From the IMG/VR virus record IMGVR_UViG_3300033402_000312: a stretch of 64,000 nt of DNA, one strand, 5' to 3'. The translations under genes were made by a program, and so were the position numbers. Below, one piece after another: positions 4,260 to 56,136 of the stretch. The notes below the pieces were generated by a model, which worked only from the letters and a program-made list of their open reading frames with translations, was not told the DNA's origin and searched no databases. The DNA is from a virus. Each line of letters starts with the position of its first letter. Position 1 is the stretch's first letter.

Positions 4260-4335
4260 GATTTAAGTTGGGGCGGTGTTTGGCACGGATGCTTTATACA
4301 AGAGTAAACCCCGTGCCGTTGATGTCCCCCACTTT

Positions 4336-13041: not shown

Positions 13042-13702
13042 ATGATTCTGGAAATAAGAGCGGCGGAAGGCGGCGAGGACGCGAGGCTCCTCGTCGAGGA
13101 CCAGACGACGATCTACGCCCGCGTGGCGTCGCGGAGGGGTCTTTGAGTTCGAGGTCGTGGAGCAGCGCCAGGGCTTCGCGGTCCTGAGGATCACGGGGCC
13201 GGGCGCGAAGGAGGCGTTCGCGAATGAGTCGGGAGGTCATCGCTGGCAGAGGGTCCCGCCGACTGAGAAGCGCGGCAGGGTGCAGACCTCGACGGTCACC
13301 GTCGCGGTGTTCGACGAACCCGAGGCTTCGGAGTTCAAGGTCAGAGACGCCGACCTCGCATGGGAGACCATGCGGAGCGGGGGCAAGGGCGGGCAGAACG
13401 TGAACAAGGTCGAGACTGCCGTCCGGCTGACCCACAGGCCGACCGGGCTGACAGTGCGGTGCGAGTCCGAGCGGTCGCAGTCGCGCAACAGGCAGACAGC
13501 GCTCGCCACCCTGACCGCCCGGCTGGCTGCGGCGCGGCGGGAGCAGCAGCAGGACGCGCAGGCGACCGACCGGAGGCGGCAGATCGGCACGGGGCAGCGC
13601 GGGGACAAGCGCCGGACGATCCGCGAAAGGGACGGGGTCGTGACAGACCACGTCCTGAACCGGAAATGGCGATACGCGGACTATGTGCGCGGGCTGTGGT
13701 AA
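13042..13702 (+). CDS. N-terminally truncated class I peptide-chain release factor homolog (domains 2-4) with programmed +1 frameshift at 13141-13146
   Basis: Frame 1: ATG 13042 (RBS GAGGTG), [34 protein letters not shown] then CTT TGA; frame 2 continues [13 protein letters not shown]...[28 protein letters not shown]...[38 protein letters not shown] (PxT-like PPT and GGQ motifs, RF1-like); GGAGG 3 nt upstream of CUU UGA as in prfB. Confidence 0.7.
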
Positions 13703-14577: not shown

Positions 14578-15240
14578 ATGTTGTCAAGGACTAAAAAGGC
14601 GGCTGCGCTGTACTTCGAGCCGCTCAAGAAACTGCTGGCTGCTGTGCGGTCGGTGGTGCAGTTCCGTGTGAAGCGCTGGCATGTCGCCATGCGCGGGTGG
14701 AATGAGAAAGACGTTCGCGTCCTGATCTGCCTTGAAGACTCGATCTGGTACTGGGTCGTGTTGGAGTGGCTGTTCTGGGACGTCCAGACGCATGTCTGCC
14801 ACTGCATGGACTGCGTCAAGCTCCCGAAGTTCGTCCGCAACTGGAAGCGGCACTGGGACAAGGACGATCCCGAGTACTTCGCCACGTGGGAGGACTGGTA
14901 CGGCGACAGCTTTCACTCGATCTGGCACTGCCATGTGTGCGATCCCTTGCTTCAGTGGGTGTGGAGGCACAAGGATTTCCACAAGGCGTGGCCGCAGTGG
15001 GAACTGACGTTCGACGAAGCCCGCAAGACCTTCGCGCACGACCCGAAAATCTACGAGTGGGCTGAGAAGGAACTTGCGGAGCACAAGCAGTACGACGCCG
15101 AGAAGCTCGACGAGATTCGCAAGTCCTACAAGGCTGGCGGCCTGACCCGCGAGCAGGCGCTTGAAAAGCTGGGGTGGCACTTCGGGGGCGAGAATCTTGA
15201 AATTCTGCTTGACGAAAAAGAAGGACTAACAGTATCTTAA
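14578..15240 (+). CDS. hypothetical Trp/His/Cys-rich protein
   Basis: RBS AAGGAG 8 nt upstream; 220-aa ORF. Confidence 0.6.
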   Translation: MLSRTKKAAALYFEPLKKLLAAVRSVVQFRVKRWHVAMRGWNEKDVRVLICLEDSIWYWVVLEWLFWDVQTHVCHCMDCVKLPKFVRNWKRHWDKDDPEYFATWEDWYGDSFHSIWHCHVCDPLLQWVWRHKDFHKAWPQWELTFDEARKTFAHDPKIYEWAEKELAEHKQYDAEKLDEIRKSYKAGGLTREQALEKLGWHFGGENLEILLDEKEGLTVS

Positions 15241-15485
15241 TAGATGCACGTGGGACCCCGACCGACCTGACGAGGCAGCTTGTACGAGAGGTGGCGGGCA
15301 GTGCGCATCAACCTGGCACCGAGGCTCATAACGACTGAACAGCCGGAGCCGATGACAACGGGGTCCCACAACTTTTTCAGTCCCAGCCCTGCCTGACTGG
15401 GTGGTTGCGGGGGAGATGTTCCAGCCCATACGATGACTGGATGGCGGGGACGCAATGTTTGGCGGAGACGACTAAATTTTTCTGA

Positions 15486-15562
15486 TGCGGGGTGGAGCAG
15501 TCTGGTAGCTCGCAACGCTCATAACGTTGAGGTCGCCGGTTCAAATCCGGCCCCCGCTTCCA
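15486..15562 (+). tRNA. initiator-like tRNA-Met(CAT)
   Basis: Body nearly identical to E. coli tRNA-fMet (TGGAGCAGTCTGGTAGCTC, GGTCGCCGGTTCAAATCCGGCCCCCGC); unpaired 1:72 (T/T); CCA encoded; anticodon stem CAACG/CGTTG lacks the three G:C pairs. Confidence 0.75.
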
Positions 15563-15578
15563 GTTTATAGCCCGAGGG

Positions 15579-15818
15579 GTGGAACCTGAGACGGCAATTC
15601 CGCCCCTCCATTCTTTGAAAGGGCGCATGGGACAGACTTCGTCAAGCTCCAAAACGACAGCCACCGAACTGGCGAAGATGCTGATGGAGCACCCCGACTG
15701 GGAAGTCGAGGTCGAGGGTTACGCTTGGTTCGGGATGAACGAGCCTACGAAGTATACGTCGTCGCCCGAAGTGGACGAACTGCCCGAGCAGAAAAAGTTT
15801 CTCATCTACACAGTCTGA
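15579..15818 (+). CDS. hypothetical small protein (start may be 15627)
   Basis: 79-aa ORF directly after tRNA; acidic C-terminal half. Confidence 0.35.
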   Translation: MEPETAIPPLHSLKGRMGQTSSSSKTTATELAKMLMEHPDWEVEVEGYAWFGMNEPTKYTSSPEVDELPEQKKFLIYTV

Positions 15819-16090
15819 GTTCAACGCCCGTAGGCTTTGAGCCGAGATGCAGAAGGGCTGGCAGAGCCATACGACCTGATGCAGGACGGGAAAGCTCTGC
15901 AAGTAATTTGTGAAGAGATTCTGCAAATGAGGCGGCATCTCATTTGCAGGGGAGCCGGAGCAAATGCGCGAGGACATGCCTCACCAGCGCGTTCAGACGG
16001 ACACCGGACCGGGTGAAAGCCGTGGCAAGACTGTTTGAGTCTCCGGCGCAAGCTTCGCAGCGGTGTAATGTACGGATACTTCACATAAAC

Positions 16091-16119
16091 CAGTAGGTTG
16101 TGGGTTCGAATCCCACCTT
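16091..16119 (+). tRNA. tRNA 3' fragment (variable loop + T arm + acceptor 3' strand)
   Basis: GGTTGTGGGTTCGAATCCCACCTTCCGAG has perfect T arm GTGGG-TTCGAAT-CCCAC but no matching 5' half upstream. Confidence 0.4.
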
Positions 16120-16669
16120 CCGAGAAATCGGATGTAGCTCAACTGGAAGAGCAACAGGTCAGAAAAATTCCGTGCAGCTTTTTGTTCCCTGCGATTTCAA
16201 GACTGATTTTTTCGTGCCGAGCCGCCCGTGCGTGGCCACGCTAAGGCGCGGGAGAATCCATAAGGTGGCTGTTGTACAGGCCCGCTCGTACGAAGGGCGA
16301 TCTTTCTAGCTAGAGGTTCGTACGAGCGAATACATTTCGGTGCTTCAAGCCGTTCTCGGACGTAAACCGAGTGGAGCGGAACCTCGCACGTTTCCCGGTT
16401 CGTCAAAAACCGGGTGGATTTCTATGACGAAAGCGACCGCGTGCAGCCTCGTTGCTTATGCCTCGGCGTTCGCTGCTGGCGCGACTTTCTGGTACGGAAC
16501 CTTGGCGTCGAAGCCCAAGTTCTATTATCTCGCGGTAGCGTTCTTCTTGTTTGCCGCGAAGTTCCGTTTTCTGGCTTCCGCGCATCTAAAAGGAAAGATT
16601 CAATGAAGCTGACGTCCCAACTCGACTCGTTTAGCGGCCCCTCCGGGGGCCTGCGGTAACGTGTGTCAA

Positions 16670-16745
16670 GGGGACGTAGCTGATGCGGTCTTAGCGCCTG
16701 CCTGAAGAGCAGGAGATGTTGGTTCGACTCCGACCGTCCCCGCCA
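16670..16745 (+). tRNA. tRNA-Phe(GAA)
   Basis: GGGGACG...CGTCCCC+G+CCA; anticodon arm CCTGC-CTGAAGA-GCAGG; T arm GTTGG-TTCGACT-CCGAC. Confidence 0.8.
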
Positions 16746-16786
16746 AACTTCCTCCTTCCTTCTTGTCCTCCAAGTATTAGTCATGG

Positions 16787-19700
16787 ATGGACGAACTTAC
16801 CCCGCAGCAAGAGCAGCCAGCCAAGAAGACGCGAAAGCCCAGAGCGCCTAAGGCCGAGAAGCCGAAGAAGGAAAAGCCTGCCCGCGACATCCGAAGTGTG
16901 TTCCGCGAAAAGCTGGCAAGCATCACCGTCGAGGGCATCAAGAAGCCTTGGATGTCCGAGAAGGTGTTCCGCCTCATCACGACGGCAGAGGAGCTTGAAG
17001 CTTGGGTAGACAGCATCCTGGCCGACGCGTCCCGGCACCACGCATGGGCGGGCATCACCTGTCCCGTCATTGCGGTTGACACCGAGACGACCAGCCTCGA
17101 CACGCGCATCTTCACCGACATCAAGCAGGACGGGAACGGCAATTGGTATCTGGTCTACGAGGTCAAGACCGAGATCGCCGGGGTCTGCCTCTCCGCTGAC
17201 GGCATCGAAGGACTTTACATCCCGATCAACCACGAGAGGGGCGTGAACGTTCCCCGCGCCGACGCGGCGCGGATTCTCCAGAGGCTCTTCGACCGATCTC
17301 ACCTGGTCTTCTACAACGGCAAATTCGACCGCGAGGTCATGAAGATCACGCTGGGCATAAGCTTCCGTGGCTACCCGCACTTCGAGGACGTGCAGGTCTT
17401 GAACTACATCAACGACCCGAAGGCCGATTTCGGCGACAAGGCGAGCTTCCAAGGCGGTGCCGAGGGGCTGAAGAAGCTTTCCGAGAGGGTGCTGGGCATC
17501 GAGCAGATCGAGATCGACGAGATCGCGAAAGTCCGCTGCCAAGTCTGGAACCCCGTCACGCAGAAGAACACGCTGAAGCAGAAAGTCGTCCCGTTCACCT
17601 GGGTTCCCCCTGACATCGCGCTGTGGTACGCGGCGGCGGACGCGATCTGCACGTGGCTCCTGTGGGACCGCATGAAGGGGCTTGCCCGCAGCCGGAAGCT
17701 CGTCCACCGCATCGACCACGAGCTTGTCGATTCGCTCGCGTACGTCGAGCGCCAGCGCTTCCTCGTGGACGTTGACCGCCAGCGCCGCACCGCCCGCTGG
17801 CACGGGCGCACGCTCGCGGCGCTGAAGGACAAGCTCTCGAAGCTCGCTGAGGCGGCGGGCTGGACGCAGGAATTCAACCCCGGCTCGACGAAGCAGCTTG
17901 GCGAGCTTCTGTTCAAGGTCATGGGCTTCAAGCCGTACCGCACGACCGATGGCGGCGCGGCGTCCACCGACAAGGAGACCCTGACGGAGCTTGCGAAAGA
18001 TCACCCGGACAACGAGTTCATCGTTGCCCTGAAGGATTTCCGCGAGCTTGCGGCGCTTCACCCGGACAACCTGCGCTACGATCCGAAAGACAACTCCGCG
18101 AGGATATACCTCAAGCAGAACGTCGTCGCCGGGGGACGCCTATCCGGGGGCGGCGGGGAGTTCGAGAAGGACGGCGGGTTGGAATGGAACCCGCAGGGCG
18201 TCAAGAAGCTGGAGAAGGAGGACTTCTGGCGCGTGTACGGCAACGTGCTGGAGCCGGACTCCGTGCCGGAGTATGAGGTTGAGGAGCACGACGAGAGCGA
18301 GCTTCACCCGTCCTGCTTTGTCGAGGAGAAGGGCGTCAAGACTAAGGCCCCCGGCATCATCAAGAACCATATCGGTCTCTACCAAGACTACGCGATCTGC
18401 CTTGTGCCGGGCTGCAAGACCTGCAAGGACAAGTTCGGAATCCTGATCGAGGACACGTCGCTCGACGCGAACCAAGTTATCAACCTGCGCGTGCTCATGA
18501 CCGCGCCTCCGGGATGGACGTTCTTCAGCATCGACTACTCGAACATCGAGATGCGTGCGATGGCCAACCTGTCCGGCGAGCCGAAGTATGTCCAGGAGTT
18601 CCTGACGGGAAGCGGCGACTTCCACGACCTGACCGCGAAGAACATCTTCCCGCAGTACAGCGACCCGACGTCGAAGGACTACAAGTCCAAGACCTTGCGC
18701 GGCATCGCCAAGATCATCAACTTCGCCATCAACTACGGCGGCACGGCGCACGCCATCTACAGGAACCTCATCAAGAAAGACCCGACCATGACCATGAAAA
18801 AGGCGGAGGAGCTTGTCGAGAAGTACTGGGCGGGCGTGCCGAAGTTCAAGGAGTGGTGCGACGTCAAGCAGGCGCGGGCACGCAACGATTTCGTCACCGA
18901 AACAGCGACTGGGCGCGTGCTCGACTTCAAGTCGGCGATGGAGCAGGAGCACATCCGCGTGCCAACTTCCCAGGAGAAGGCGCTCCTGAGAAAGTACTAC
19001 GACTACAAGCGCGAAGCCAAGGCTGCGCTGGAGCGGGGCGACGAGGACGTTGCCGCATCGTACAAGAACGCGGCGGACAGGCTGTGGAAGAACCCGGAAA
19101 CGGGCGTCCGCAACGCCATTGAGTACAACCAGTTCATCAGCAAGGCGCAGCGCGTCGCAGTCAACACCCCGGTGCAGGGGCTGTGCGGCGACTTCATGCG
19201 CATCTCGATCAACCGCATCAAGAAGTGGGTCGAGAAGGACCCGGACGTCCAAAAAGTGTTCCGCTTCCACTGCTCCGTCCACGACGAGATCGACGTGTCG
19301 ATCAAGAACGAGTATGTGCCGTTCGTCCTGCCGCGCCTCACGCGCTGGATGAAGCTGCGCAAGTACCACGAGAGCATGCAGTGGCCTGTTCCCATCGAAT
19401 GCGACGCAGAGTACGGTCGTAGCTGGGACGTGGACTGGAGCATCAACAAGGTGGGATACACGTACATCGACGGCCTTGAGACCTACGCGCCGGATGCGTT
19501 CAGCACGACCACGGTCAACAACCTGTACAAATTCATTGCCTCCGGCGACGAGGAGAAACGCGAGAAGGCGAAGGGCTACCTCCAGAACGTCCTCCACCCC
19601 CGCGCTTTCGAATCCGCGAAACTTCTGTTCAAGGCGCAGGACAGGAAGGAAATCCAGCAGCAGCTTGTCGCCGTGCTCCAGCTTCACGAGTACTGGACTA

Positions 19701-19987
19701 TCGACCATGTGCCGGACGGCGACGAGAACGACAAGACCCTTGAGACGCTCGCGCAGTACGAGCAGCGCGTGGGCATCAGCGCACGCGACCCGCTCTGCCC
19801 GGAGTTCGGTTACATGGGGCCGATCCCGCTCGACAACCCGAACGTGATCCGCCCGGAGCCTAACCTGCTCGAAGGCGGTGAGGTTACGCCCACGGAAACC
19901 TCGGAACCGGAAACAGAAGAAACTTTTGAGGTTGAAGACCCCCCGCAGACCTCTCAGGAATTCCTGACGCATAAAGTAGGAGCTTAG
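16787..19987 (+). CDS. polA: DNA polymerase, family A (3'-5' exonuclease + polymerase)
   Basis: Exo motifs DTETTSLD, YNGKFD, YAAADA; Pol motif A IDYSNIEMRAMANL, motif B RGIAKIINFAINYGG, motif C SVHDEIDV; 1066 aa with insertions. Confidence 0.95.
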   Translation: MDELTPQQEQPAKKTRKPRAPKAEKPKKEKPARDIRSVFREKLASITVEGIKKPWMSEKVFRLITTAEELEAWVDSILADASRHHAWAGITCPVIAVDTETTSLDTRIFTDIKQDGNGNWYLVYEVKTEIAGVCLSADGIEGLYIPINHERGVNVPRADAARILQRLFDRSHLVFYNGKFDREVMKITLGISFRGYPHFEDVQVLNYINDPKADFGDKASFQGGAEGLKKLSERVLGIEQIEIDEIAKVRCQVWNPVTQKNTLKQKVVPFTWVPPDIALWYAAADAICTWLLWDRMKGLARSRKLVHRIDHELVDSLAYVERQRFLVDVDRQRRTARWHGRTLAALKDKLSKLAEAAGWTQEFNPGSTKQLGELLFKVMGFKPYRTTDGGAASTDKETLTELAKDHPDNEFIVALKDFRELAALHPDNLRYDPKDNSARIYLKQNVVAGGRLSGGGGEFEKDGGLEWNPQGVKKLEKEDFWRVYGNVLEPDSVPEYEVEEHDESELHPSCFVEEKGVKTKAPGIIKNHIGLYQDYAICLVPGCKTCKDKFGILIEDTSLDANQVINLRVLMTAPPGWTFFSIDYSNIEMRAMANLSGEPKYVQEFLTGSGDFHDLTAKNIFPQYSDPTSKDYKSKTLRGIAKIINFAINYGGTAHAIYRNLIKKDPTMTMKKAEELVEKYWAGVPKFKEWCDVKQARARNDFVTETATGRVLDFKSAMEQEHIRVPTSQEKALLRKYYDYKREAKAALERGDEDVAASYKNAADRLWKNPETGVRNAIEYNQFISKAQRVAVNTPVQGLCGDFMRISINRIKKWVEKDPDVQKVFRFHCSVHDEIDVSIKNEYVPFVLPRLTRWMKLRKYHESMQWPVPIECDAEYGRSWDVDWSINKVGYTYIDGLETYAPDAFSTTTVNNLYKFIASGDEEKREKAKGYLQNVLHPRAFESAKLLFKAQDRKEIQQQLVAVLQLHEYWTIDHVPDGDENDKTLETLAQYEQRVGISARDPLCPEFGYMGPIPLDNPNVIRPEPNLLEGGEVTPTETSEPETEETFEVEDPPQTSQEFLTHKVGA

Positions 19988-37305: not shown

Positions 37306-37996
37306 TGGGATTGTTTACCGAATTACGAACATTCGCAACGGTAAAGTGTACGTCGGTAAGACGAACGGGACGATTGCCCGTCGCTGGACAAGACATGTTG
37401 CAGAGGCGAAGAGAGGAACGAACACGCGTCTCTATAACGCCATGCGCAAATACGGTGTGCAGGCGTTCGAAATCAGCCCTATCGAAACGGTCTTGTTTAG
37501 CGGATTGTCTGACGCGGAGCGTGAATGGATTCAAAAACTTAAGTCCCGTGATCCAAAGCTTGGTTACAACATTACGCCGGGCGGGGACGGTGCCGGAGTC
37601 GGACCTGACAACCCGAATTACGGCAAACCTGGACCCAACCGTGGGCGAAAATTTCCACCGGAATTTGGGCAGAAGATTAGCCAAGCAAAGAAGGGCACCA
37701 AGGTCTCTGAACAAGCGCGGCAGAACATCATCAGGGGATTGACAGGGCGAATACCAACGGAGGCAACACGTCAGAAATTAGCCCAAGGAAAACGGGGCGC
37801 TCTCAATCCAAGCTGGAAAAAGCCTCATTCTGCGGCGTGGAAGAGGCAAAACAGCGAAAGATTTAGGGACAGAGTTTGGATTAGCTTGGGCACATCGGAG
37901 ACCAAACGAGTGAAGTCTTCGGAGTTGCAAGAATACTTTGAAAAAGGTTGGATACAAGGGCGATGGAATCGAAGAGCACGCATGCAGTCGAGATAG
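37292..37996 (+). CDS. GIY-YIG homing endonuclease with NUMOD-like repeats
   Basis: GIVYRITNIRNGKVYVGKT (GIY...YVG), R and E catalytic positions; repeated GKPGPNRGRKFPPE / KKGTKVSEQARQN motifs; low-GC island. Confidence 0.8.
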   Translation: MPKTDGIVYRITNIRNGKVYVGKTNGTIARRWTRHVAEAKRGTNTRLYNAMRKYGVQAFEISPIETVLFSGLSDAEREWIQKLKSRDPKLGYNITPGGDGAGVGPDNPNYGKPGPNRGRKFPPEFGQKISQAKKGTKVSEQARQNIIRGLTGRIPTEATRQKLAQGKRGALNPSWKKPHSAAWKRQNSERFRDRVWISLGTSETKRVKSSELQEYFEKGWIQGRWNRRARMQSR

Positions 37997-39180
37997 TTCC
38001 CGTGGTGTTGGAGCGGCACCCCAACGCAGACAGCCTCAGCGTTGTTCGTGTCTGGAACTTCACTGTGGTGGTGCGGACAGAAGATTGGATCGGTGTAGAG
38101 AAAGCGGCCTATGTGCCTCCTGACAATATTTTGCCCGACAAGCCCGAGTACCGCTTCCTGAAGAACACGTCCGTCCTCCGCAAGGAGCGCGAGGAATTGG
38201 AGACCAAGCAAGTCTTGGCTGGAGACCCGAGGTGCGGCAACCCGCATTGGGAGCTTCTCAGAGACTATGCCCCGGAAGAGTACGCCCAAAAGCTGGCCGC
38301 CATCGAAGCCAAGATCGACGCGAATACCAAGCACCTTCGCATCACCGTGAAGAAGCTGCGCGGCATCGTCTCGATGGGCATGCTGCTGCCAGCGCCGGAA
38401 GGCTCACAGATTGGCGACGACGTGGCGGGGCAGCTTGGCGTTACGCACTACGAGCCGCCGTCCATGGAAGAGATCGGGGGCCGCAGGCAGCACGCCGGGG
38501 ACGACGTCGCCCCCGCCCCGCCGATGATCTACGCTCCCGCGTACGACGTGGAGTCCATCTACAAGTATGCGGACTGCTTCGAGGCGGGCGAGCCTGTGTA
38601 CGTGTCCGAGAAGATTCACGGCCAAAACGGGCGTTTCGTGGCGACCGACAACGGCAACGAGACGGTCGAGGAGCACCCCGAAACCGGATACTGGAAATGG
38701 TCTACTCCCGTGACTCTGCACGCTGGCTCCCGCACTGAGTGGAAAAAGAAGGAGGGAGGCTCCAACTGGTGGAAGGTGCAGGAGCAAAACCCGTGGATCG
38801 AGAAGTGGTGCTACGACAACCAGGACTGCGTCCTCTACGGCGAGGTCTTCGGCTGGGTGCAGGCGCTCAAGTACGGCGCGAAGCCGGGGCAACTTTTCTT
38901 CCGCGCCTTCGACGTCGTGGAGGGCACGGAGTTCTGGGACGCCGAGAGGTTCCTCGCCGAGATTCCTAAGGACTGGCGTGTGCCGTGCCTCGGGGTCATG
39001 CCATTCGACTTCGAGGGATTGCAGGCTTTGGCGGACGGGACGTCCTTGGTGCCGGGTGCCGCCAACCAGATGCGAGAGGGGATCGTGATCAAGCCGCTCA
39101 AGGAGCGCAAACACTGGAAGCTGGGGCGCGTTGTCTTAAAATTGGTCTCGAATGAGTACCTAGAAAAGTCAAATCGATGA
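37948..39180 (+). CDS. ATP-dependent RNA ligase (Rnl2/RnlB-like) with N-terminal extension
   Basis: Motif I KIHGQNGRF, motif III LYGEVFG, motif IV REGIVIKP, motif V WKLGRVVLKLV. Confidence 0.8.
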   Translation: MDTRAMESKSTHAVEIVPVVLERHPNADSLSVVRVWNFTVVVRTEDWIGVEKAAYVPPDNILPDKPEYRFLKNTSVLRKEREELETKQVLAGDPRCGNPHWELLRDYAPEEYAQKLAAIEAKIDANTKHLRITVKKLRGIVSMGMLLPAPEGSQIGDDVAGQLGVTHYEPPSMEEIGGRRQHAGDDVAPAPPMIYAPAYDVESIYKYADCFEAGEPVYVSEKIHGQNGRFVATDNGNETVEEHPETGYWKWSTPVTLHAGSRTEWKKKEGGSNWWKVQEQNPWIEKWCYDNQDCVLYGEVFGWVQALKYGAKPGQLFFRAFDVVEGTEFWDAERFLAEIPKDWRVPCLGVMPFDFEGLQALADGTSLVPGAANQMREGIVIKPLKERKHWKLGRVVLKLVSNEYLEKSNR

Positions 39181-40060: not shown

Positions 40061-40419
40061 TCAACAAGGAAGACGACCCCACAAACGAACTGGACGCTGT
40101 GACCACCGAGCACTTGGAGGTCACCGGCGAGGACGACGGAGAGTTAACCGAGGAGCTTGCCGACACGGCGGTCATCGAGCAGCTTTTGGACACGTTCGTC
40201 GGGGAAGTGGGCGACATACTCGATCTTGCAGTCGAGGTGTCGATGGAAGGGAACCCTGTGCGCACTCACCTAGACCTCGTTACTGCAAGGCAGGACATTG
40301 TCGAGTTGGCTCAGGAACTGAAGCAAGAACTCATTTCCAAGGTTGCTGTCCGTGCGGAAGAAATAGCCGAGCAGGGCCTTAACCTGCGCAAGCAGGTAAT
40401 CGAAGAACAGGAGAGCTAA
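40057..40419 (+). CDS. hypothetical acidic protein
   Basis: 120-aa Asp/Glu-rich ORF. Confidence 0.45.
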   Translation: MINKEDDPTNELDAVTTEHLEVTGEDDGELTEELADTAVIEQLLDTFVGEVGDILDLAVEVSMEGNPVRTHLDLVTARQDIVELAQELKQELISKVAVRAEEIAEQGLNLRKQVIEEQES

Positions 40420-41609
40420 TGTTCGCACGCGGCTCATGGGCTATCTTCGGCATCAAAGCAGACTCCGAGACGGCTTTCGCCAGTAGCCTCGACGACTCCT
40501 ACAAAGTGAGCCAGTCCTTGGCTGCCCAGAAAGCCAAGGACGACAGCGTCCCGACCTATGGCATCAACCCCTACGAGTACCCGCGTTTTGACGAAAGCCG
40601 CCTGGATTTAGGCGTCACCGCCGACGAATTCAGGCTGGGCGACCACGTATACGGGTTCTGGTTCTGCCTCAATGGCTTCGAGGACGTCACCGACCCCAAG
40701 TCCAAGCAGGAGGGACTCGCCTATGCCAACATGGGCAAGCCCTTCAAGTTCCTCAAGAAAGAGGAAAAGGCGCATGTGGATTCGCTTGTCGCAGCAAGCG
40801 CGGTGGCGTCGCGCAAGCAGTTTCCCGTCCTGATCGACTTCGCCGAGGAGCGCGTGTACGCGGAGACCACCAAAGCCGAGGAGATTGGCGACCTGCGCAG
40901 GCTCCTTGAGGTCATGGGCGCGACGCCCTACAACCTGACGTGGAACTTCGGGAGCGCCGACTGGCCCTTCCGGTTCCTCGCCAAGGTGAACGAGGGGAAC
41001 AGGTACCACAAGCAGATGAAAGACCGCGCCGACGAGCTTAGCCGCTTCCATGCGAACGAGGTCGAGAAGCTGGAGGACAAGATGGTCGAGTCCATCGTCT
41101 CCGGCTACTTCGCCATGTCCGAGCTTGAGACAGGGCAGTGGGCGGGGCTGTCCACCCCGGCGAAGATCAGGCTGTTCGGAACGTCAGACCCATCGGCGGA
41201 GTCCGCCGTGAGCACCGCGTTCACGCTGCTTGAGCTTGTGGGCACCGCGACCGTCGCGGCGTCTGCGGTCGTCTTCCAGAGCCTCGACTCGAAGTTCAGC
41301 AAGAAGGGCGAGGAGAAACAATACCGCACCGACCTGTTCGCCATCGACATCAACGACAAGGTCAACATCTCCGACGCCGGGGCTGCGGCGCTGCGCGGCT
41401 TCGACCTGCCGCAGTACAAGAAGGACATGAAGCGGCTTGCCAAAAGCGGCGAGGTGCCCATCAGGGTCTACTGGTTTGACTGGCTCGTCGCCATGAAAGA
41501 AGCAATCCGCCTCTTTGCCGACAACATCACTGAGACGCTGCATGTGGACAAGAAGCTGGGGCTGAAAGCCTATGAGGCGGAAATCGAGGAAAAAGCGGTG
41601 AAAGTCTGA
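40419..41609 (+). CDS. hypothetical protein
   Basis: 396-aa ORF, protein-like; no motif recognised. Confidence 0.55.
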   Translation: MFARGSWAIFGIKADSETAFASSLDDSYKVSQSLAAQKAKDDSVPTYGINPYEYPRFDESRLDLGVTADEFRLGDHVYGFWFCLNGFEDVTDPKSKQEGLAYANMGKPFKFLKKEEKAHVDSLVAASAVASRKQFPVLIDFAEERVYAETTKAEEIGDLRRLLEVMGATPYNLTWNFGSADWPFRFLAKVNEGNRYHKQMKDRADELSRFHANEVEKLEDKMVESIVSGYFAMSELETGQWAGLSTPAKIRLFGTSDPSAESAVSTAFTLLELVGTATVAASAVVFQSLDSKFSKKGEEKQYRTDLFAIDINDKVNISDAGAAALRGFDLPQYKKDMKRLAKSGEVPIRVYWFDWLVAMKEAIRLFADNITETLHVDKKLGLKAYEAEIEEKAVKV

Positions 41610-46769: not shown

Positions 46770-46841
46770 GGCTTTCTAGCCCTAGAGCAGTAATGTGCAT
46801 TGTGCCAGCAATCTTGGTATTAAATCAACGGAGGAAGGAAA

Positions 46842-47171
46842 ATGAAGGTAATTTTTTTGCTGGATAACTCGGAATACGTCGAGGTCGCGCCGGACAAGCT
46901 GCAAATCAGGCAGATTCAGCCGGGTCAGTCCGCCCTTGGCATGGAGGTCACGGTGCCCGTCCGCAAGGAGGACGGCACGCCTGACAAGAACGAGGACGGC
47001 AGCCCCAAGACGCAGACCGGATTCCGCCCGTTCATAAATTACGCGGTCAATCTGTCAGTCCCTGCGCCTGTTGCGGCAGCACCAGCACCGGCAGCGGCTC
47101 AAGCGCAGGAGCAGCCCACCGCTGAGAAGCCCAAAGGCAAGGCCAGGGCCGCAAAGCGCCGCGTAAACTGA
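46842..47171 (+). CDS. hypothetical protein
   Basis: RBS GGAGGAAGG; 109 aa with Ala/Pro tail. Confidence 0.45.
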   Translation: MKVIFLLDNSEYVEVAPDKLQIRQIQPGQSALGMEVTVPVRKEDGTPDKNEDGSPKTQTGFRPFINYAVNLSVPAPVAAAPAPAAAQAQEQPTAEKPKGKARAAKRRVN

Positions 47172-47182
47172 TCGGGGGCTAA

Positions 47183-47416
47183 GTGCTTAACGAGACGTGT
47201 TGGCACAAAACCTTCTCGAACGGCCGTGTGGTTCTCGTTGAGTGGCATGATACAGCATGCCGGTGCTCATACTGCACCGACTTGTGTGGCTCAGGGACGC
47301 GGCTGCGCAACGGCTTTAACGCCCCAGATTTGAGGGTTTGGAATTCGTGGCGTGTCGTGAAGCTGGGGCGCTTGTACGTCCGCTGGACTGGGAAAAGTCT
47401 GCAAAGCGCTGCATAA
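47183..47416 (+). CDS. hypothetical protein
   Basis: 77-aa ORF. Confidence 0.3.
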   Translation: MLNETCWHKTFSNGRVVLVEWHDTACRCSYCTDLCGSGTRLRNGFNAPDLRVWNSWRVVKLGRLYVRWTGKSLQSAA

Positions 47417-47512
47417 ATTGGTTGAAGGCTAAGTGCTTGTAGCCTATGCACTTGACCCTCAACTGGGGTGGATGTTGCGCTACGTGCTTCTATACCGAAA
47501 CGGGAAAACTGA

Positions 47513-48142
47513 TTGAGGTTGCCTATGAAATTGACCAAAAGTTCCGTCCATCGTTTGCAGCTTAACAAAGACTGCGGTTGCCGGGCGATCAAAGAGTTCG
47601 AAGACGCACGTTACACAAAAGCTTTAGGGGAAGGCACGGTTGTCCTTTGTGAAAAGCACAACGCCAAAGCCAAGGACACTAAAGAAATACTTAGCGAAAT
47701 GCTCTTAGAGACGCTGGATTTACAGGCCGAGGCGGCGGGCAAGACGGCTGTTGTCCAACGCGAATTCGCACCCACGTCCTTGTCCGGCGTCACGGGGGAG
47801 CAGATCACTTCCATGGGCGCTCCCGCCGTCCCCAAGACCCGCGAGAAGTGCGACCCCCTTGCGGTCCGCACAGTGGCTTTTGAACGACCGGACATGCACC
47901 GTCCCCGCAACACAAGCCCCACGGGAAACCTGAACCTTGCCCAGCACGAGGACATTTCCGATGAGGAATTGCAGGAGCAAGGCATTACCATCACCGGGGA
48001 CATTGACAGTGTTCCGCCAGACCCAAGGGTTGATGCGGCACTGGGCGATGGTCTCAAGGAACTTGAAAACGTTTTCGACGACGAGGACGCCAAAGCTGGC
48101 GGCGTGGATCGAAAATTGGTCAATATCCAAGCTGTAGATTAA
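47513..48142 (+). CDS. hypothetical protein
   Basis: 209-aa ORF. Confidence 0.45.
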   Translation: MRLPMKLTKSSVHRLQLNKDCGCRAIKEFEDARYTKALGEGTVVLCEKHNAKAKDTKEILSEMLLETLDLQAEAAGKTAVVQREFAPTSLSGVTGEQITSMGAPAVPKTREKCDPLAVRTVAFERPDMHRPRNTSPTGNLNLAQHEDISDEELQEQGITITGDIDSVPPDPRVDAALGDGLKELENVFDDEDAKAGGVDRKLVNIQAVD

Positions 48143-48447
48143 ACCGCTCTTCCCACCCGGAATTGACAAAGCTCTGCGCCTTTGCTAGCGTTGGGTCAGG
48201 GATTGTCATGAAGAATTATTACCGTGGAGTTGAAATCACCAACCAACGCGGTACAACGATCAACAGCATTACGGCGGTTGTGTCATGGATAACGGGGATC
48301 GCTTTGAAAGGGATCACATCAACCTCCACATGGATGTTTGGAATGTCTTCCCCAAGCATGGCGTAAGCGTGGGGGGTATCTGGCGTTGGTCCGACCGGGC
48401 TTGGGAAGGGGGAAAACAAACCAAGCCAAAAATAAGCGAGGCACACT

Positions 48448-48813
48448 GTGTCAGCCGACAGGAAGACGCCGAAAATTCTGAACGCGCACGCGAAGAAGAG
48501 AGCCGGGGAGAGGTACGGCCTTAACCTCAACAAGGAAGCCCGGCACGAGATCGTGCAGATGATACAGACGAACCAAGCGGAGTTCGTCGGGAAGCAGTCC
48601 AACAACCGCTCATTTTGGCGCGTCACCTACCAAGATCAGCCGCTCAACGTCGTCTACGACAAGGCGCGGAGCACTTTATGCACGGTGCTGCCGAAGGAAG
48701 CCGCCGAATTCCAGCCGGGGGTTGGCCGGAACGAGCCGGAGACCAAGGCGTTGTCGCAAACCCGCGCAAACATAACAGCCGAATTGTCGGAACTGTGGAA
48801 GGACATCGAATAG
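48448..48813 (+). CDS. hypothetical protein
   Basis: 121-aa ORF. Confidence 0.4.
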   Translation: MSADRKTPKILNAHAKKRAGERYGLNLNKEARHEIVQMIQTNQAEFVGKQSNNRSFWRVTYQDQPLNVVYDKARSTLCTVLPKEAAEFQPGVGRNEPETKALSQTRANITAELSELWKDIE

Positions 48814-48814
48814 G

Positions 48815-49309
48815 CTACCTTTCGACTTCGATGTTGTGGGCTGTGCCGTAGATGTGGGAGCTTATAGCAGCAGCCTGCGGCAACCACCAGATGTGTCTGA
48901 TCCAAGTGCGGGAGCGGTGCATTTTCTCCCCTAGCCAATAGGTTCCGAGAACCTCCGCTGCTCCCCACGGAGCCATGCTTACCAAAGTTGGGCGACGCCC
49001 GATGAAAGCCCGCATCACAGGATTGGCTTCGTATCCGCCTTCCTTGATGATTTTCTCCGTCATGATGCCGTCGCTGACTGCGGTTCCCGCATCGACCGCA
49101 GCTAGCGCCGACGCTTCCCTATCCTTGAAGGTGCCCATGTCTCTCGCCGTGCGGGCGATGGACACGAAAGGGTATCCGGCTGCGTGCAGGATTGCGTTGG
49201 GCTGCGGCTTGGGCGCATCAGGCAAATCCTGCTTGGATGGCGTATCCTGCGCCAATGCCGGAATTGCGAGCAGCAAAGTGAAAACGAGAAGAAATTTCGC
49301 GGTGGACAA
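48815..49309 (-). CDS. secreted protein (signal peptide)
   Basis: MSTAKFLLVFTLLLAIPALAQ signal peptide; 164 aa. Confidence 0.5.
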   Translation of the reverse strand: MSTAKFLLVFTLLLAIPALAQDTPSKQDLPDAPKPQPNAILHAAGYPFVSIARTARDMGTFKDREASALAAVDAGTAVSDGIMTEKIIKEGGYEANPVMRAFIGRRPTLVSMAPWGAAEVLGTYWLGEKMHRSRTWIRHIWWLPQAAAISSHIYGTAHNIEVER

Positions 49310-49347
49310 AGAACCTCCAGTGATTAGTACTCACTGGAGGGAAAAAT

Positions 49348-49563
49348 TCACTGGAGAGGGATTAGATTAGGTCGTTCCTGTTTCCTAGCCCACTCCTGAC
49401 AGTACGAACACCACTCGCCTTTCTTCACGACATTGTTCAGGCACCGCGCCGGGAAAAATCTCGGGCTAGCGCACCGCTGGCGGCGGGGTCTGCGTCGCCC
49501 GGCGTTGTAGGGCTTCTTAGGAGTCGTAATTTTCTTCCTCTTCCGGTTCGAAGGTTTCTTCAT
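49348..49563 (-). CDS. small basic protein
   Basis: 71 aa, Lys/Arg-rich. Confidence 0.3.
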   Translation of the reverse strand: MKKPSNRKRKKITTPKKPYNAGRRRPRRQRCASPRFFPARCLNNVVKKGEWCSYCQEWARKQERPNLIPLQ

Positions 49564-49855
49564 TGGCGACTTTGTTGTGCTCCAAGACAGAGCATACTTC
49601 TCGCTCCTCGAAGCGGTTGACGATGTCCAGCAAAATCGCTGTGCGCCGGGAATCCCCGACTATCCATCGGTAGATTAGCCCGGCAAGAACCAAAGCCAAA
49701 GCGAAGTCGGCGAGGGTTGCGTATTCCGTATGCCGTGCGTCGATGCCGACCAGCCGGGGGACGTAGCCCTCAGGCACGGCAAGAACGCATCCCACCAGCC
49801 AAACCGTGAGGAGCCTCGGGTAACGCTGGACGTTCATTATGAATCGTGTGAACAT
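49517..49855 (-). CDS. membrane protein
   Basis: ATG at 49855 shares one base with upstream TAA (TAATG); two hydrophobic helices. Confidence 0.4.
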   Translation of the reverse strand: MFTRFIMNVQRYPRLLTVWLVGCVLAVPEGYVPRLVGIDARHTEYATLADFALALVLAGLIYRWIVGDSRRTAILLDIVNRFEEREVCSVLEHNKVANEETFEPEEEENYDS

Positions 49856-50151
49856 TAGTTGCCTCCTATGTATTGCTGGAGCGCCCTGTCGATCTGGTTC
49901 CAGTTGATGTCGTTGGCAATCCTCTTCACTAAGAAGCCGCCCGGCGCGTCGAGTTCGCTCAAGTTCCAACCACTAATCCACTTTCCGCCCCGACCGTAGC
50001 GGTTGGCGTCAGCCCAAAAGTGGCGACCATCTAGCGTGAGGGTGCGTGCTTGCTTGCTGCCTCTCCACGGTTGCCAGTCGTAGATATGTTTCCTCGGACG
50101 GTTAACCACGTTGTTCCCTCTCGATCTCGATGCGGAACCTGTTGTAGGCAA
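49855..50151 (-). CDS. hypothetical protein
   Basis: 98-aa ORF. Confidence 0.45.
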   Translation of the reverse strand: MPTTGSASRSRGNNVVNRPRKHIYDWQPWRGSKQARTLTLDGRHFWADANRYGRGGKWISGWNLSELDAPGGFLVKRIANDINWNQIDRALQQYIGGN

Positions 50152-50983
50152 TGTTGAACGCAGCTTTCTCGTCCAGTTCGCCGTCTTGGTAGTAGTTCTC
50201 GGGGGCTTCGGCTTTGTACTCGGCGATGCGTGCGCGAATCATGGCGTCGAGTTCGCCGACATTCCGTGCCGCAACCGGAACAGTCGGGTTGATCTTGCTT
50301 TCCTGCTCGGAGAACCATTTCCAATCCTCGGCTGTGAAGCCAGCTTCCCCGGACAGGGCTAAAAATTTCGCGTCGCCAGCGTTGTCGTTCTGGTCGCGGA
50401 ATGCTTTCATTCGCATGAATTTGGTTTGCGCCGGGACGCCGTTGGCTTTCGGCTGGCGGGCGGAGCCATCGAAATTCAAGCCGCGCTGGGGTGCAACCGT
50501 GCCGGTGGCGGCTGCCAGGGGCACCGCAGCCATGCCGATTCTGCCGATGCACTCGGGGCCAAAGCCGGAGGCGATGGACTCGGGCACGGTCAGCTTGCGA
50601 CCGCAGCGACCGCACCTGCCTTCGTGCCAGACTTCGAAGCCGTTGATGCGGTTCGCGGCAAGCGAGTTCAGGACGTAGGTGAAGCCGAGAACGGAGGGGG
50701 CGTCCCTGCCGACGCGGGAGGACTTGGGAGTCCAGATGAACTGGTTGTTGCGCACGATGCCGATGTAGACGAAGCTGCGGGAGTTGTCGGGGCCGTTGAG
50801 CAGCTTCACGAACCACGTGGGCGCGGCGGCGGGGTCGCGCTTCTCGGCCCCGACGATCTTGTAGGTGTAGCGGTTGCCGCTCTTGAGGCTTCGAAAAGTG
50901 ACCGTCGCTTTCCCGGCGAGGATGAACGCCAAGGCTGCCTTGGGGTCTGCGATCTGTCCCTGCGTCATTGTCCGTTCCCCCAA
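50102..50983 (-). CDS. hypothetical protein
   Basis: 293-aa ORF (start possibly 50968); CGRCGRK zinc-ribbon-like pair. Confidence 0.55.
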   Translation of the reverse strand: MGERTMTQGQIADPKAALAFILAGKATVTFRSLKSGNRYTYKIVGAEKRDPAAAPTWFVKLLNGPDNSRSFVYIGIVRNNQFIWTPKSSRVGRDAPSVLGFTYVLNSLAANRINGFEVWHEGRCGRCGRKLTVPESIASGFGPECIGRIGMAAVPLAAATGTVAPQRGLNFDGSARQPKANGVPAQTKFMRMKAFRDQNDNAGDAKFLALSGEAGFTAEDWKWFSEQESKINPTVPVAARNVGELDAMIRARIAEYKAEAPENYYQDGELDEKAAFNIAYNRFRIEIEREQRG

Positions 50984-51339
50984 TTTTTAGGGGAGGGCAC
51001 GTGGCTCTCTGGCAAAATTCCTATCGGTCTCGTTGTGATGATGGCTGGCGTCAGCTTTTCGATCAGGCTCGCCGTGCTTGTGCCGTAGGCCAAGTCAGTG
51101 GACTTTCGCTCATGCTTCTTGCGGTTCACGGCTTTTTTGTGCATGACACCCATGCCGTAGCGGTAATCGCAAGTGGGGACGATCCTCCACCCCTTGTCGT
51201 TTATGAAGATCATGACCTCGCTAATGTGCTTGTGTATGAAAACGCGGGTGGGCGTGCTTTTGAAGCAATCGGACAGTATCTTGTTTTCTACCCAGCCACT
51301 ATCGGTAAGAACCTCTTCGACGGCGGGACGGTTGTACAT
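50965..51339 (-). CDS. hypothetical protein
   Basis: Internal ATG 51339 with RBS GGAGGG 5 nt upstream on the minus strand. Confidence 0.45.
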   Translation of the reverse strand: MYNRPAVEEVLTDSGWVENKILSDCFKSTPTRVFIHKHISEVMIFINDKGWRIVPTCDYRYGMGVMHKKAVNRKKHERKSTDLAYGTSTASLIEKLTPAIITTRPIGILPESHVPSPKNWGNGQ

Positions 51340-51451
51340 TGTTCCCTCCAACCGTAGTATACAGCGGGGCACCGGAAAACGTCCAGTTGCATGCCCATTG
51401 GTATCAACAAGTTAGGGCGATCCGAGTCGGTAAGGCGCATCTCGGCATCCT

Positions 51452-52180
51452 ATGAGTATGAGGTTTCTTGCAATCTTGCTGCTTTTGTGCGTGCCTTTCT
51501 CGGCGGCAGCCAGCGTGCGCGGGAAACAACACGGGAAGCGCAAGCACAAGCCCGTGGCGGACGACCGCGTGTTCATGGGCACGCCCGACAGCCTGATCCT
51601 CCAGAACGAGGCAATCGACGCGATGCGCCTGCCGCGCATCCGCGACGACAGGCAGCTTCGGTTGCTCGTCGCCGAGGGTGCGCTTGTTCCAGTCACGCGA
51701 AACCAGTATGTTGCGATTTCCTGCAAGCTGGAAGCCAAGCGCCGCTACGTCAAGCCGTTCGTCGATGAGTTCCTTCAGGAACTCGGGCGGGAATATTTTG
51801 CGCAGTTCGGCAAGCCGGTACAGGTCAACTCCGCTGTCCGAACGATGAGGACGCAGATGAAGCTGCTCCGCATAAACCGCAACGCTGCCCCGGATCACGG
51901 CGAGAAAGCGAGCGCACACCTCGCGGGCGTCGCGGTGGATTTGCAGCGCCGGGGCTTGACGCCGGAACAGATCAGATTCATCCAGCAGAGGCTCTTGCCC
52001 CTCGTACAGGCCAAAATGCTTATTGTTGAGGAGGAAATTAAGCAGCCCTGCTTTCATATCGTGGTGACCGGGAATTATTCGCTCTTGCTTCCGCCTGACT
52101 TGCCGTTGAACATGCAGCCGCTTGGTTCACAATTAACCCAACTGGAGACGTTGGATGGAAACAATCCAAGCTATCCCTGA
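51452..52180 (+). CDS. secreted M15-family-like peptidase (candidate cell-wall hydrolase)
   Basis: Signal peptide MSMRFLAILLLLCVPFSAAAS; SAHLAGVAVDL matches the S-x-H-x-x-G-x-A-x-D zinc-binding motif of VanY/M15 peptidases. Confidence 0.5.
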   Translation: MSMRFLAILLLLCVPFSAAASVRGKQHGKRKHKPVADDRVFMGTPDSLILQNEAIDAMRLPRIRDDRQLRLLVAEGALVPVTRNQYVAISCKLEAKRRYVKPFVDEFLQELGREYFAQFGKPVQVNSAVRTMRTQMKLLRINRNAAPDHGEKASAHLAGVAVDLQRRGLTPEQIRFIQQRLLPLVQAKMLIVEEEIKQPCFHIVVTGNYSLLLPPDLPLNMQPLGSQLTQLETLDGNNPSYP

Positions 52181-52607
52181 GGACCATGTCTGGTCGGGGG
52201 CGGAGATTCAGGAACTGCTCGACACCCGTGTCCGGTACCGAGACTGGAAATTTGTCGTGCAGGAGGAGTACGCGCAGCGCGACGGTGTCATGGACATCGA
52301 CCTCCACCTACGCGCCGAATGGACGGCACCGTGCAGCACAGCCGGGCAGCCGGAGAAGCAGCAATCCCGCTGGTGGCGGCTGTCGAAGCATATGCGCAAA
52401 AATGAGATCATCAACACCGCCTTTGCGTGCATCAAAATGGCAGAGGAGCACGAGATGCGGGAAGGCTTCAAGTACCTGCGCGAGGGCGTCTGGACGATGC
52501 CCTACAACAGCCACATCGACATGGACGAGCTTGCCGCCGCCTCGCTGCACTGCGACGTGCGCACCGACAGCCGCCCGGATGTGCCGAAAAACCAGAGGAG
52601 AGACTAG
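52155..52607 (+). CDS. hypothetical protein
   Basis: 150-aa ORF. Confidence 0.4.
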   Translation: METIQAIPEDHVWSGAEIQELLDTRVRYRDWKFVVQEEYAQRDGVMDIDLHLRAEWTAPCSTAGQPEKQQSRWWRLSKHMRKNEIINTAFACIKMAEEHEMREGFKYLREGVWTMPYNSHIDMDELAAASLHCDVRTDSRPDVPKNQRRD

Positions 52608-52723
52608 ACTGACATGCGGGCGGAATTCTTGCTATGGTGGGCGACACTTCAGGTGTGGGAGAGATGGGCAGTGGTAGTCATTATCGTCGGCATCGTTTTC
52701 ATTCTGACGAAGAGGAGAGACTG

Positions 52724-53182: not shown

Positions 53183-53508
53183 TGAGCGGGTTTCGAGTCA
53201 GCTTTGAGTTCAGCGAATTTGTGACGTCTGCGCTGCTGATCACAGTCGCGGCATGCACGGTGGGCTACTTCTATACGCACCGAGCACCGACCGAGATCGT
53301 CAAGGAATCGACCGTGAAGGTGGAGACCCAGTATATCCCCACGCCAGAGGCAAAAGTCAGGGTCAACATCCACGTCGTGTACCCGAAGCCCGAGCCGAAG
53401 CCGAACGTCGAGCCGCTGCCCCAGCCGCAATCGCAGTTGCGACCCAAGCTCTGGGACAATGACACCCTGGCGGATTATTTCCAGCGGAATCCGTCTCACC
53501 TTTTCTAA
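53182..53508 (+). CDS. membrane-anchored protein (spanin/holin-like candidate)
   Basis: RBS AGGAGG; N-terminal TM helix then Pro/Lys/Glu-rich periplasmic region. Confidence 0.4.
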   Translation: MSGFRVSFEFSEFVTSALLITVAACTVGYFYTHRAPTEIVKESTVKVETQYIPTPEAKVRVNIHVVYPKPEPKPNVEPLPQPQSQLRPKLWDNDTLADYFQRNPSHLF

Positions 53509-56125: not shown

Positions 56126-56136
56126 TTTGCCCCCGG

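Follow-up and report, generated by a model that had tools for sequence, protein, structure and literature searches.

A probable YrlA-class Y RNA in the tRNA array of a huge soil phage that encodes its own Ro60

The IMG/VR virus record IMGVR_UViG_3300033402_000312, of which a stretch of 64,000 nt (the window) is analysed here, carries within its array of tRNA genes an element in which the parts of a tRNA stand in inverted order, the 3' half preceding the 5' half. A first-pass annotation took this locus for a circularly permuted tRNA gene or, failing that, for the junction of two independently truncated tRNAs. Is it either of these? Or do the tRNA-like parts belong to an RNA of another class? 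Comparison of sequences makes it very probable that window 16054-16196, on the + strand, is a YrlA-class Y RNA of a huge soil phage. The RNA class itself is known; what is of interest is the distance from the gene for its expected partner protein, Ro60, the location in a tRNA array, and the presence of several copies whose heads are modular.

YrlA RNAs are bacterial and phage partners of Ro60 (Rsr), and the Ro60 site lies on the stem formed by the two ends of the RNA (PMC4201824). The other end of a YrlA is a tRNA-like domain in which the parts are ordered as variable loop, T arm, closed 'acceptor' stem-loop and D arm (Chen et al. 2014, PMC4201824). The window RNA has this same order, and it has the long end-to-end stem (P1 and P2) with a large internal loop. 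In a permissive Rfam scan of window 15000-17500, the YrlA model (RF02553) aligned end to end to 16069-16179 with 41.6 bits and E=3.2e-7, although the middle helix of the model is not conserved in the window RNA. Because tandem tRNAs can imitate YrlA in covariance-model searches (Chen et al., PMC4201824), further tests were run before this sub-threshold hit was accepted. The parts of the RNA are as follows, where A3 is an alignment of 14 homologues and R1 is a covariance model built solely from them.

16054-16196, + strand: the whole putative Y RNA (YrlA class), about 143 nt, from alignment A3; 140.5 bits with R1
16054-16063, + strand: P1 5' strand UUCGCAG-C-GG, partner 16187-16195; from RNAalifold, with one A-U to G-C compensatory change within the family
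16060-16066, + strand: GCGGUGU motif, a putative Ro60 contact at the site of GNCGAAN0-1G in bacterial YrlA; invariant in the 14 homologues
16070-16075, + strand: P2 5' strand GUACGG, partner CCGUGC at 16170-16175; 100% paired in the family
16076-16082, + strand: AUACUUC motif, 5' side of the internal loop; N-UACUUC (UACUUC being 16077-16082) invariant in A3
16090-16094, + strand: 3'-type strand CCAGU of the anticodon-stem-like helix, partner ACAGG at 16154-16158, with a central A.A mismatch
16095-16099, + strand: variable loop AGGUU, in which U16099 is tRNA position 48
16100-16116, + strand: T arm GUGGG-UUCGAAU-CCCAC, 100% paired, with compensatory changes at three of five pairs and the canonical T-loop UUCGAAU
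16117-16134, + strand: acceptor-like stem-loop CUUCCGA-GAAA-UCGGAUG, 7 bp (one U.U) capped by a GNRA tetraloop
16117-16123, + strand: 3' acceptor-type strand CUUCCGA, from reading the sequence
16124-16127, + strand: GAAA loop (the GNRA tetraloop), from reading the sequence
16128-16134, + strand: 5' acceptor-type strand UCGGAUG, from reading the sequence
16135-16136, + strand: U8-A9 linker (UA), both nucleotides invariant in the 14 homologues
16137-16152, + strand: D arm GCUC-AACUGGAA-GAGC, with the D stem 100% paired
16154-16158, + strand: 5'-type strand ACAGG of the anticodon-stem-like helix, helix 3 of the covariation test
16159-16169, + strand: A-rich 3' side of the internal loop, UCAGAAAAAUU; such a run of A is kept both in the family and in YrlAs next to Ro60
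16170-16175, + strand: P2 3' strand CCGUGC, from RNAalifold and covariation
16183-16195, + strand: UGUUCCC motif (16183-16189) and P1 3' strand CC-C-UGCGAU; GUUCCC is invariant in the family

The pieces that the first-pass annotation had described are all there. A variable loop, T arm and 3' acceptor strand without CCA occupy 16095-16123, and a 5' acceptor strand, D arm and 5' anticodon-stem strand occupy 16128-16158. The acceptor strands do pair at six of seven positions, the seventh being U.U, and CCAGU pairs with ACAGG at four of five (16090-16094 with 16154-16158). The spacing between the halves, given there as 8 nt, is in fact 4 nt (GAAA, 16124-16127). The acceptor-like end of the window copy is capped by this loop and has no free ends and no CCA. 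The D arm contains the contact nucleotides A14, A15 (16142), G18-G19 and A21. At the site of AUACUUC, the Rfam YrlA consensus reads AUGCuu.

Homologues were gathered from syntenic relatives and by pattern scans of IMG/VR and metagenome contigs, which together gave 14 distinct sequences; L020, L106, L109, L112 and L242-L247 (L numbers are our labels for loci) were rejected as chance pattern matches. The element and its flanks are present at full length in relatives with a DNA polymerase identity of at least 68%, about 1.4 kb upstream of the polymerase gene. Among the relatives its conservation has sharp limits, at UUCGCAG (16054) on the 5' side and at CUGCGAUU (16196) on the 3' side. Covariation was tested for six helices (P1, P2, anticodon-like stem, T arm, acceptor-like stem and D arm) on A3, aligned with MAFFT. 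In this test 94.6% of cells are paired, compared with 39-49% when the partners are slid, and 14 pairs have changes on both sides; none of 500 shuffles reached the observed values. P1 and P2 are 98-100% paired in the family, and RNAalifold independently recovers both of them and the three arms. The anticodon-like stem has compensatory changes in four of its five pairs, the middle pair being unpaired in 10 of the 14 sequences. The acceptor-like stem, which is 7 bp in most homologues, has compensatory changes at six of its seven pairs while its loop varies from 4 to 11 nt, and this rules out decayed tRNA fragments.

Bacterial YrlAs resemble tRNAs in their tertiary contacts as well, with U8-A9, G18G19, the T-loop and a Levitt pair for which compensatory covariation is reported (PMC4201824; 10.1101/312249). 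The 14-member family has the same contact nucleotides: U8, A9, A14, G18G19 and the T-loop are invariant, and the Levitt pair 15-48 (columns 100 and 48) is G-C in 10 sequences and A-U in 4, so that it is paired in all 14. Two further observations were made in this set of sequences. In L006:1156-1300 and L111:1265-1413, ACCA stands directly 3' of the acceptor-type 3' strand, like an encoded discriminator and CCA, and it is absent from the other 12. On contig IMGVR_UViG_3300041955_000190 (L095:7056-7108, - strand) there is a copy of the 5' block only (UUCGCAGCGGUGUGUUGUACGGAUACUUC), which diverges right after UACUUC; truncation or rearrangement of a Y RNA, or a break in the assembly, may account for it.

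Does the same phage encode a Ro60? The window was searched with Pfam and PHROG scans of open reading frames (ORFs) of at least 340 aa, with tblastn using human Ro60 and D. radiodurans Rsr, and with our own Ro60 hidden Markov model (HMM). No TROVE gene was found between window -7.3 kb and +67.5 kb (3.5 kb past the window end); ORF 40419-41609, for which tblastn gave a weak hint, was not upheld as a Ro60. The Ro60 locus was reached through a second copy of the RNA module and not through scans of contigs of polymerase (PolA) relatives. The Ro60 of this phage (P0031) is encoded on ENA contig k141_415010; this contig and window 46820-64000 are 100% identical over 17,181 bp, and the protein therefore belongs to the same genome as the RNA. 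In converted coordinates the gene is at window-equivalent ~86,750-88,174, on the + strand and 22.7 kb past the window end, which places it 70.6 kb downstream of the RNA on the same strand. P0031 has a TROVE domain with a weak VWA_2 and a faint vWA_Ro60 match. It is 81% identical to the Ro60 of a 332-kb relative, and it matches the Ro60 structures of Thermus phage phiLo (PDB 9KOP/9L5Y) over residues 12-468 with E=1.3e-29. The protein of the 332-kb relative, a 479-aa ORF, is recognised by our Ro60 HMM (E=4e-16) and by precomputed Pfam TROVE and vWA_Ro60 matches, and it has 44% identity over its full length to gp139 of phage CcrColossus. No Ro60 lies within 8 kb of the RNA in any relative.

The phage probably infects a member of the Acidobacteriota. 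TROVE proteins with 55-57% identity to the phage Ro60 (P0092, P0094 and P0116) are annotated in metagenome-assembled genomes of 'Candidatus Angelobacter'. We take this to be an acidobacterial genus; if so, these proteins fit an acidobacterial host, or phage contigs binned with the host.

The second copy that led to the Ro60 gene is one of several sister RNAs in this genome, of which the following were located.

4267-4333, + strand: 'mini' Y RNA of 67 nt, between tRNA-Leu(gag) and tRNA-Leu(cag); R1 32.3 bits over model positions 1-36 and 114-145
L259:5728-5835 and L259:5844-5973 (window-equivalent ~86,477-86,722), + strand: pair of Ro60-adjacent RNAs directly upstream of the Ro60 ORF at L259:6001-7425

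The mini RNA has the module GCGGUGU...CGGAUGCUU...UGUCCCC on the same plan of P1, P2 and loop as the main RNA, and it has 3 nt where the model has the 77 positions of a tRNA-like domain. Its orthologue in the 332-kb relative is 305 nt downstream of the 479-aa TROVE and vWA ORF, on the same strand. The pair of RNAs lies 28-270 nt upstream of the Ro60 ORF of this phage. Their modules are GCAGCGGUGU...ACGGUUACUUC...UUGUUCCCUGC and GCGGCGGUUU...GCGGUUACUUC...UUGUUCCCCGC, and their heads differ, one being a 42-nt hairpin and the other a T arm and acceptor stem from which the D arm has been lost. This phage thus has at least four Y RNAs with one predicted docking module: the main RNA, the mini RNA and the two upstream of Ro60. 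Their heads are, respectively, a full tRNA mimic, almost nothing, and the two just described. The RNA of the window is homologous to YrlAs beside Ro60 genes in other phages also, since full-length R1 matches of 40-66 bits, on the strand of a Ro60 gene and no more than about 1 kb from it, were found in dozens of IMG/VR phage contigs (best 80 loci scanned).

What has been kept among these RNAs? In an alignment of 13 paralogues (A5), GCGGUGU is present in 11, including the mini RNA and Ro60-adjacent RNAs. The exceptions are L259:5844-5973, which has GCGGUUU, and L263:1261-1357, a gapped row that is not resolved. UGUUCCC is common to 12 of the 13, and UACUUC is found in the Ro60-adjacent RNAs and in CcrColossus. 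Compensatory changes among the paralogues affect six of nine pairs in P1 and four of six in P2 (ACGG/CCGU to ACAG/CUGU, for example), with the unpaired motifs fixed. Invariant sequence on a covarying scaffold is the look that would be expected of a shared protein-binding site.

A close likeness is to Caulobacter phage CcrColossus (JX100810), which has been named as a phage with a Ro60 homologue and Y RNA-like non-coding RNAs (PMC12135203). Its YrlA-like RNAs have the same architecture, the best of five tandem copies scoring 97.6 bits with R1, and blastn against the window RNA gives 79% identity over the tRNA-like domain. The docking module is of the same type (GUGGCGUAG...CGGAUACUUC...GUUCCCC). 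At the site of GCGGUGU it has GUGGCGUAG or GUGGCGCAG, and GGCGUAG is a five-of-six match to GNCGAAN0-1G. With the Rfam YrlA model CcrColossus scores 42.3 bits, compared with 41.6 for the window RNA. The difference is one of place: the CcrColossus RNAs are 0.04-1 kb upstream of the TROVE gene on the same strand, whereas the window RNA is 70.6 kb away, in a tRNA array upstream of the DNA polymerase gene. The space upstream of gp139, at ~108,500-109,460 on the - strand (L249), is taken up by the five tandem RNAs (R1 97.6 to 44.9 bits); the CcrColossus record annotates only terminators and one tRNA-Gln there.

YrlAs of S. Typhimurium (RF02553; PDB 6CU1) and M. smegmatis share the order of end-formed stem and tRNA-like domain, and the 7-bp acceptor-like stem of the window RNA matches that of M. 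smegmatis. The window RNA differs from bacterial YrlA in having GCGGUGU in place of GNCGAAN0-1G and in lying outside any rsr operon. Phage phiLo (PDB 9KOP, 9L5Y) likewise has a phage Ro60 with several phage Y-like RNAs (Yrl1/Yrl2), and its Ro60 has been shown experimentally to bind Yrl RNA and to form a complex with the host polynucleotide phosphorylase (PNPase) (PMC12135203). The phiLo RNAs are hairpin and bulge RNAs recognised by a CGAA motif, and both their genes are directly upstream of Ro60; no tRNA-like domain is described for them, unlike the window RNA (PMC12135203).

Several results weigh against the assignment to YrlA. The 41.6 bits are below the RF02553 gathering cut-off of 69 bits. 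GCGGUGU agrees with the bacterial consensus GNCGAAN0-1G at only about three of its six specified positions. All YrlAs of the 2014 survey were within 4 kb of a Ro60 gene (Chen et al. 2014, PMC4201824), and the window RNA is ~70.6 kb from one, though on the same strand. The fold of the single sequence is only modestly better than that of shuffles (z = -2.1), and the scan gave no usable promoter-like or terminator-like signals adjoining the RNA. In addition, the 5' block served as a search pattern, and its invariance among the metagenome hits is therefore partly built in; alignment A5 was fitted to the model, so that its pair counts lean towards structure.

The Rfam scores are 34-46 bits in the window family, 33-47.5 bits for Ro60-adjacent phage RNAs and 42.3 bits for the TROVE-adjacent RNA of CcrColossus; a sub-threshold score is thus typical of phage YrlAs, and the cut-off leaves out the whole phage group. 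Ro60-adjacent IMG/VR RNAs deviate from GNCGAAN0-1G also, with GCCGGAG and GGUCG as examples. The paralogous RNAs at L259:5728-5973 are within 4 kb of Ro60 and on the same strand. The search-pattern bias does not touch the 3' block or the first four syntenic homologues, and the invariance of GUUCCC is independent of the search since this motif was not in the pattern.

Could the locus be a tRNA gene after all? Circularly permuted tRNA genes (Cyanidioschyzon merolae and some archaea) and two-piece transfer-messenger RNA (tmRNA) genes also place the 3' half before the 5' half. Their RNAs have free CCA ends together with an anticodon loop or a tag reading frame, and they need a bulge-helix-bulge splicing endonuclease or a specific excision. 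On a permuted reading, the ends of the window RNA would be joined and its acceptor loop cut to yield a functional decoding tRNA. The order of the halves is right for this, the acceptor strands are complementary, the tRNA-like core retains all tertiary-contact nucleotides, and an RNA ligase is encoded in the window (37948-39180). Yet the window RNA has no anticodon loop, CCA, G3:U70 or tag ORF, and its acceptor end is closed by a loop. Between ACAGG and P2 stand 11-13 nt that vary in length and sequence, and a 7-nt anticodon loop is not reconstitutable, for the stem opens into an internal loop of 14-16 nt and 11-13 nt that P2 closes. There is no bulge-helix-bulge motif, the acceptor strands are held in tight loops that include GAAA and GUGA tetraloops, and ACCA occurs in only two of 14 sequences. 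Conservation peaks in P1, P2 and the motifs, parts that would be lost on maturation to a tRNA, and the same motifs occur in RNAs without a tRNA-like domain and beside Ro60. ARAGORN calls no tRNA at the locus (15563-16669), and the Rfam tRNA model reaches 15.9 bits there on the T arm only. What stood of the permuted-tRNA proposal is therefore the permuted order; as a functional tRNA gene, with no anticodon loop and with conserved closing helices, the locus is very improbable. A two-piece tmRNA was rejected as well: ARAGORN finds no tmRNA, position 3-70 is G3:C70, the D arm is full and there is no coding piece or tag ORF. The thought that two truncated or decayed tRNA genes meet here by chance, or that a tRNA dimer has deceived the YrlA model, has in its favour the warning of Chen et al. 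about tandem tRNAs, the position in a tRNA array, and the behaviour of R1, which itself gives 18-24 bits to tandem tRNA-Phe pairs of distant relatives. These relatives (55-57% polymerase identity; L002, L004, L009) have no such RNA within 8 kb of the polymerase, and the weak matches are ordinary tandem tRNA-Phe genes that look quite different from the window RNA. In the comparison with related phages that the first-pass annotation had called for, the unit is kept in 14 homologues. No flanking tRNA halves are present (ARAGORN, Rfam), and tandem tRNAs split by a group I intron were rejected because the missing halves are absent from 15563-16669. The 143-nt unit, non-tRNA flanks included, is kept in 14 sequences as one covarying RNA with compensatory changes in every variable helix and with covarying acceptor strands (6/7 pairs), and pseudogenes would not maintain such pairing. 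With the Rfam E-value of 3.2e-7, the 14-fold conservation and the covariation, chance is far from sufficient, and a junction of tRNA remnants is the least credible of the readings considered here, improbable in the extreme.

Two other explanations accept a YrlA-like RNA and differ in what becomes of it. The RNA might act without Ro60, for instance by imitating the tRNA elbow as a decoy or sponge that occupies host tRNA-binding enzymes or tRNA-directed defence nucleases; it would be expressed along with the phage tRNAs, its stem serving for stability alone. It is 70 kb from the Ro60 gene and in the tRNA array in every relative examined, where no Ro60 lies within 8 kb; it is also the most complete tRNA mimic among the Y RNAs found so far in this genome, the Ro60-adjacent copy lacking the D arm. 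The unpaired motifs of its stem are nevertheless invariant and identical to those of the Ro60-flanking RNAs in this genome and clade, a sign that they have a protein partner in common, and an RNA without an anticodon loop cannot decoy anticodon nucleases. We regard this as quite unlikely. Slightly less so, though still unlikely, is a variant of the Y RNA reading in which the acceptor loop is opened by RNase P cleavage and 3' trimming, with addition of CCA, which would give a two-piece Y RNA, possibly with a chargeable end. The 7-bp length of the acceptor-like stem in most homologues, the ACCA directly after the 3' strand in L006 and L111, and the precedent of M. smegmatis YrlA (PMC4201824) favour this variant. 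Against it, the GNRA tetraloops of the window copy and L104 are 4 nt long and leave no 5' leader for RNase P, the loop sequences are not conserved, and position 2-71 or 6-67 is often mismatched. A YrlA-class Y RNA that shares its predicted Ro60 site with its sister RNAs remains the preferred reading.

The window is part of a large phage genome. It encodes a family A DNA polymerase (16787-19987), a portal protein, a clamp loader, a 5'-3' exonuclease, the RNA ligase and a protein with an RF-1 domain, and ARAGORN finds 16 tRNA genes on the + strand between 3579 and 16745. The array includes five tRNA-Leu, four tRNA-Pro and three tRNA-Met genes, and within it, at 13157-13702 (+ strand), is a gene for a 181-aa protein with PCRF and RF-1 release-factor domains. 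No near-identical phage is present in GenBank. The closest annotated phage by polymerase (PolA) is Tunturi_5, a phage of Tunturiibacter (Acidobacteriota) with a genome of 308 kb, at 42% identity, and the order polymerase, hypothetical protein, portal is common to both. Relatives in IMG/VR have polymerase identities of 55-88% on contigs of 84-455 kb. The whole 308-kb genome of Tunturi_5 contains no Ro60 and no Y RNA of the window type, only tRNA dimers. It encodes RtcB ('tRNA splicing ligase'), an RNA ligase and a CCA-adding enzyme (PP885688, L250-L256), and unannotated gaps at ~231-245 kb and 250-254 kb contain tRNA clusters.

Other conserved non-coding sequences flank the RNA. A block of ~85 nt at 15818-15902 (+ strand), directly 3' of a small ORF, has 83-91% identity in L007, L105, L006 and L111 and no Rfam match; in L007 a tRNA-Met directly precedes the equivalent of this block. 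An element at 16347-16428 (+ strand), in every case downstream of the Y RNA, weakly resembles the Rfam wcaG RNA motif (31.7 bits against a cut-off of 42; E=0.0019). All six aligned relatives have its first hairpin (CUCGG-ACGUAAA-CCGAG) and the GUGG after it unchanged, and the second hairpin is kept in four of the six, with a compensatory change in L006. The leader of tRNA-Phe at 16594-16669 (+ strand) is conserved and has a GC hairpin, GGCCCCUCCGGGGGCC, at 16637-16652. Two tandem tRNA-Phe genes are found in most relatives checked (L001, L002, L004, L007, L009), and a single one in the window and in L006.

How might this RNA work? From the sequence comparisons we infer that P1 and P2 with the GCGGUGU, UACUUC and UGUUCCC motifs form a docking site for the Ro60 of the phage itself, and this closing module would hold the TROVE and vWA protein. 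The other end would fold as an L-shaped tRNA mimic composed of the T arm, the D arm, the GAAA-capped 7-bp stem and the 15-48 Levitt pair. By analogy with D. radiodurans, S. Typhimurium and phiLo, the stem would bind the outer face of the Ro60 ring; in other systems, deletion of Ro60 destabilises Y RNAs. An RNA placed there may control access to the cavity and tether an effector. The effector and its action can be suggested by analogy: it may be PNPase, as documented elsewhere, or a protein that binds the tRNA elbow, as proposed for YrlA. In either case the outcome would be that degradation or quality control of structured RNA is redirected during infection. Several Y RNAs with different heads could then be alternative adaptors or regulators of one Ro60, competing for it or specialising it. 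To judge by its position and strand, the RNA is probably co-transcribed with the phage tRNAs and processed along with them.

A peptide deformylase gene and a gene like those for polynucleotide kinase-phosphatase (PNKP; AAA_33 and HAD_PNKP domains) follow within 5-7 kb after Ro60 in three clades (L257, L259, L263). The PNKP-like gene at the Ro60 locus and the RNA ligase of the window suggest an RNA-repair toolkit, and this fits the link with RNA repair that has been proposed for Ro60 and tRNA-like RNA in jumbo phages (PMC7824862).

The reading of this locus as a tRNA mimic of a known class accounts for what looked like a permuted or broken tRNA, and such mis-annotation can thus be avoided. It also means that Y RNA genes need not adjoin Ro60, since one is 70 kb off in a tRNA array and one is between tRNA-Leu genes. 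The two rules by which such RNAs are detected, a distance of at most 4 kb from Ro60 and an Rfam score of 69 bits, both miss the window RNA, and the Rfam cut-off misses the CcrColossus RNA as well; Y RNAs of phages have therefore probably been under-counted. One module with different heads is a natural series that could be used to ask what the tRNA-like domain of YrlA does. Tentatively, and as a possibility that we hold at somewhat worse than even, we suggest that the huge soil phages of this clade have a 'programmable' Ro60 particle, with one Ro60, at least four Y RNAs, an invariant module and differing heads, in which the full tRNA mimic has moved from the Ro60 locus into the tRNA array. If this is true, the full mimic would be made in step with the phage tRNAs, and RNA surveillance or repair by Ro60 would be tied to the takeover of the tRNA pool.

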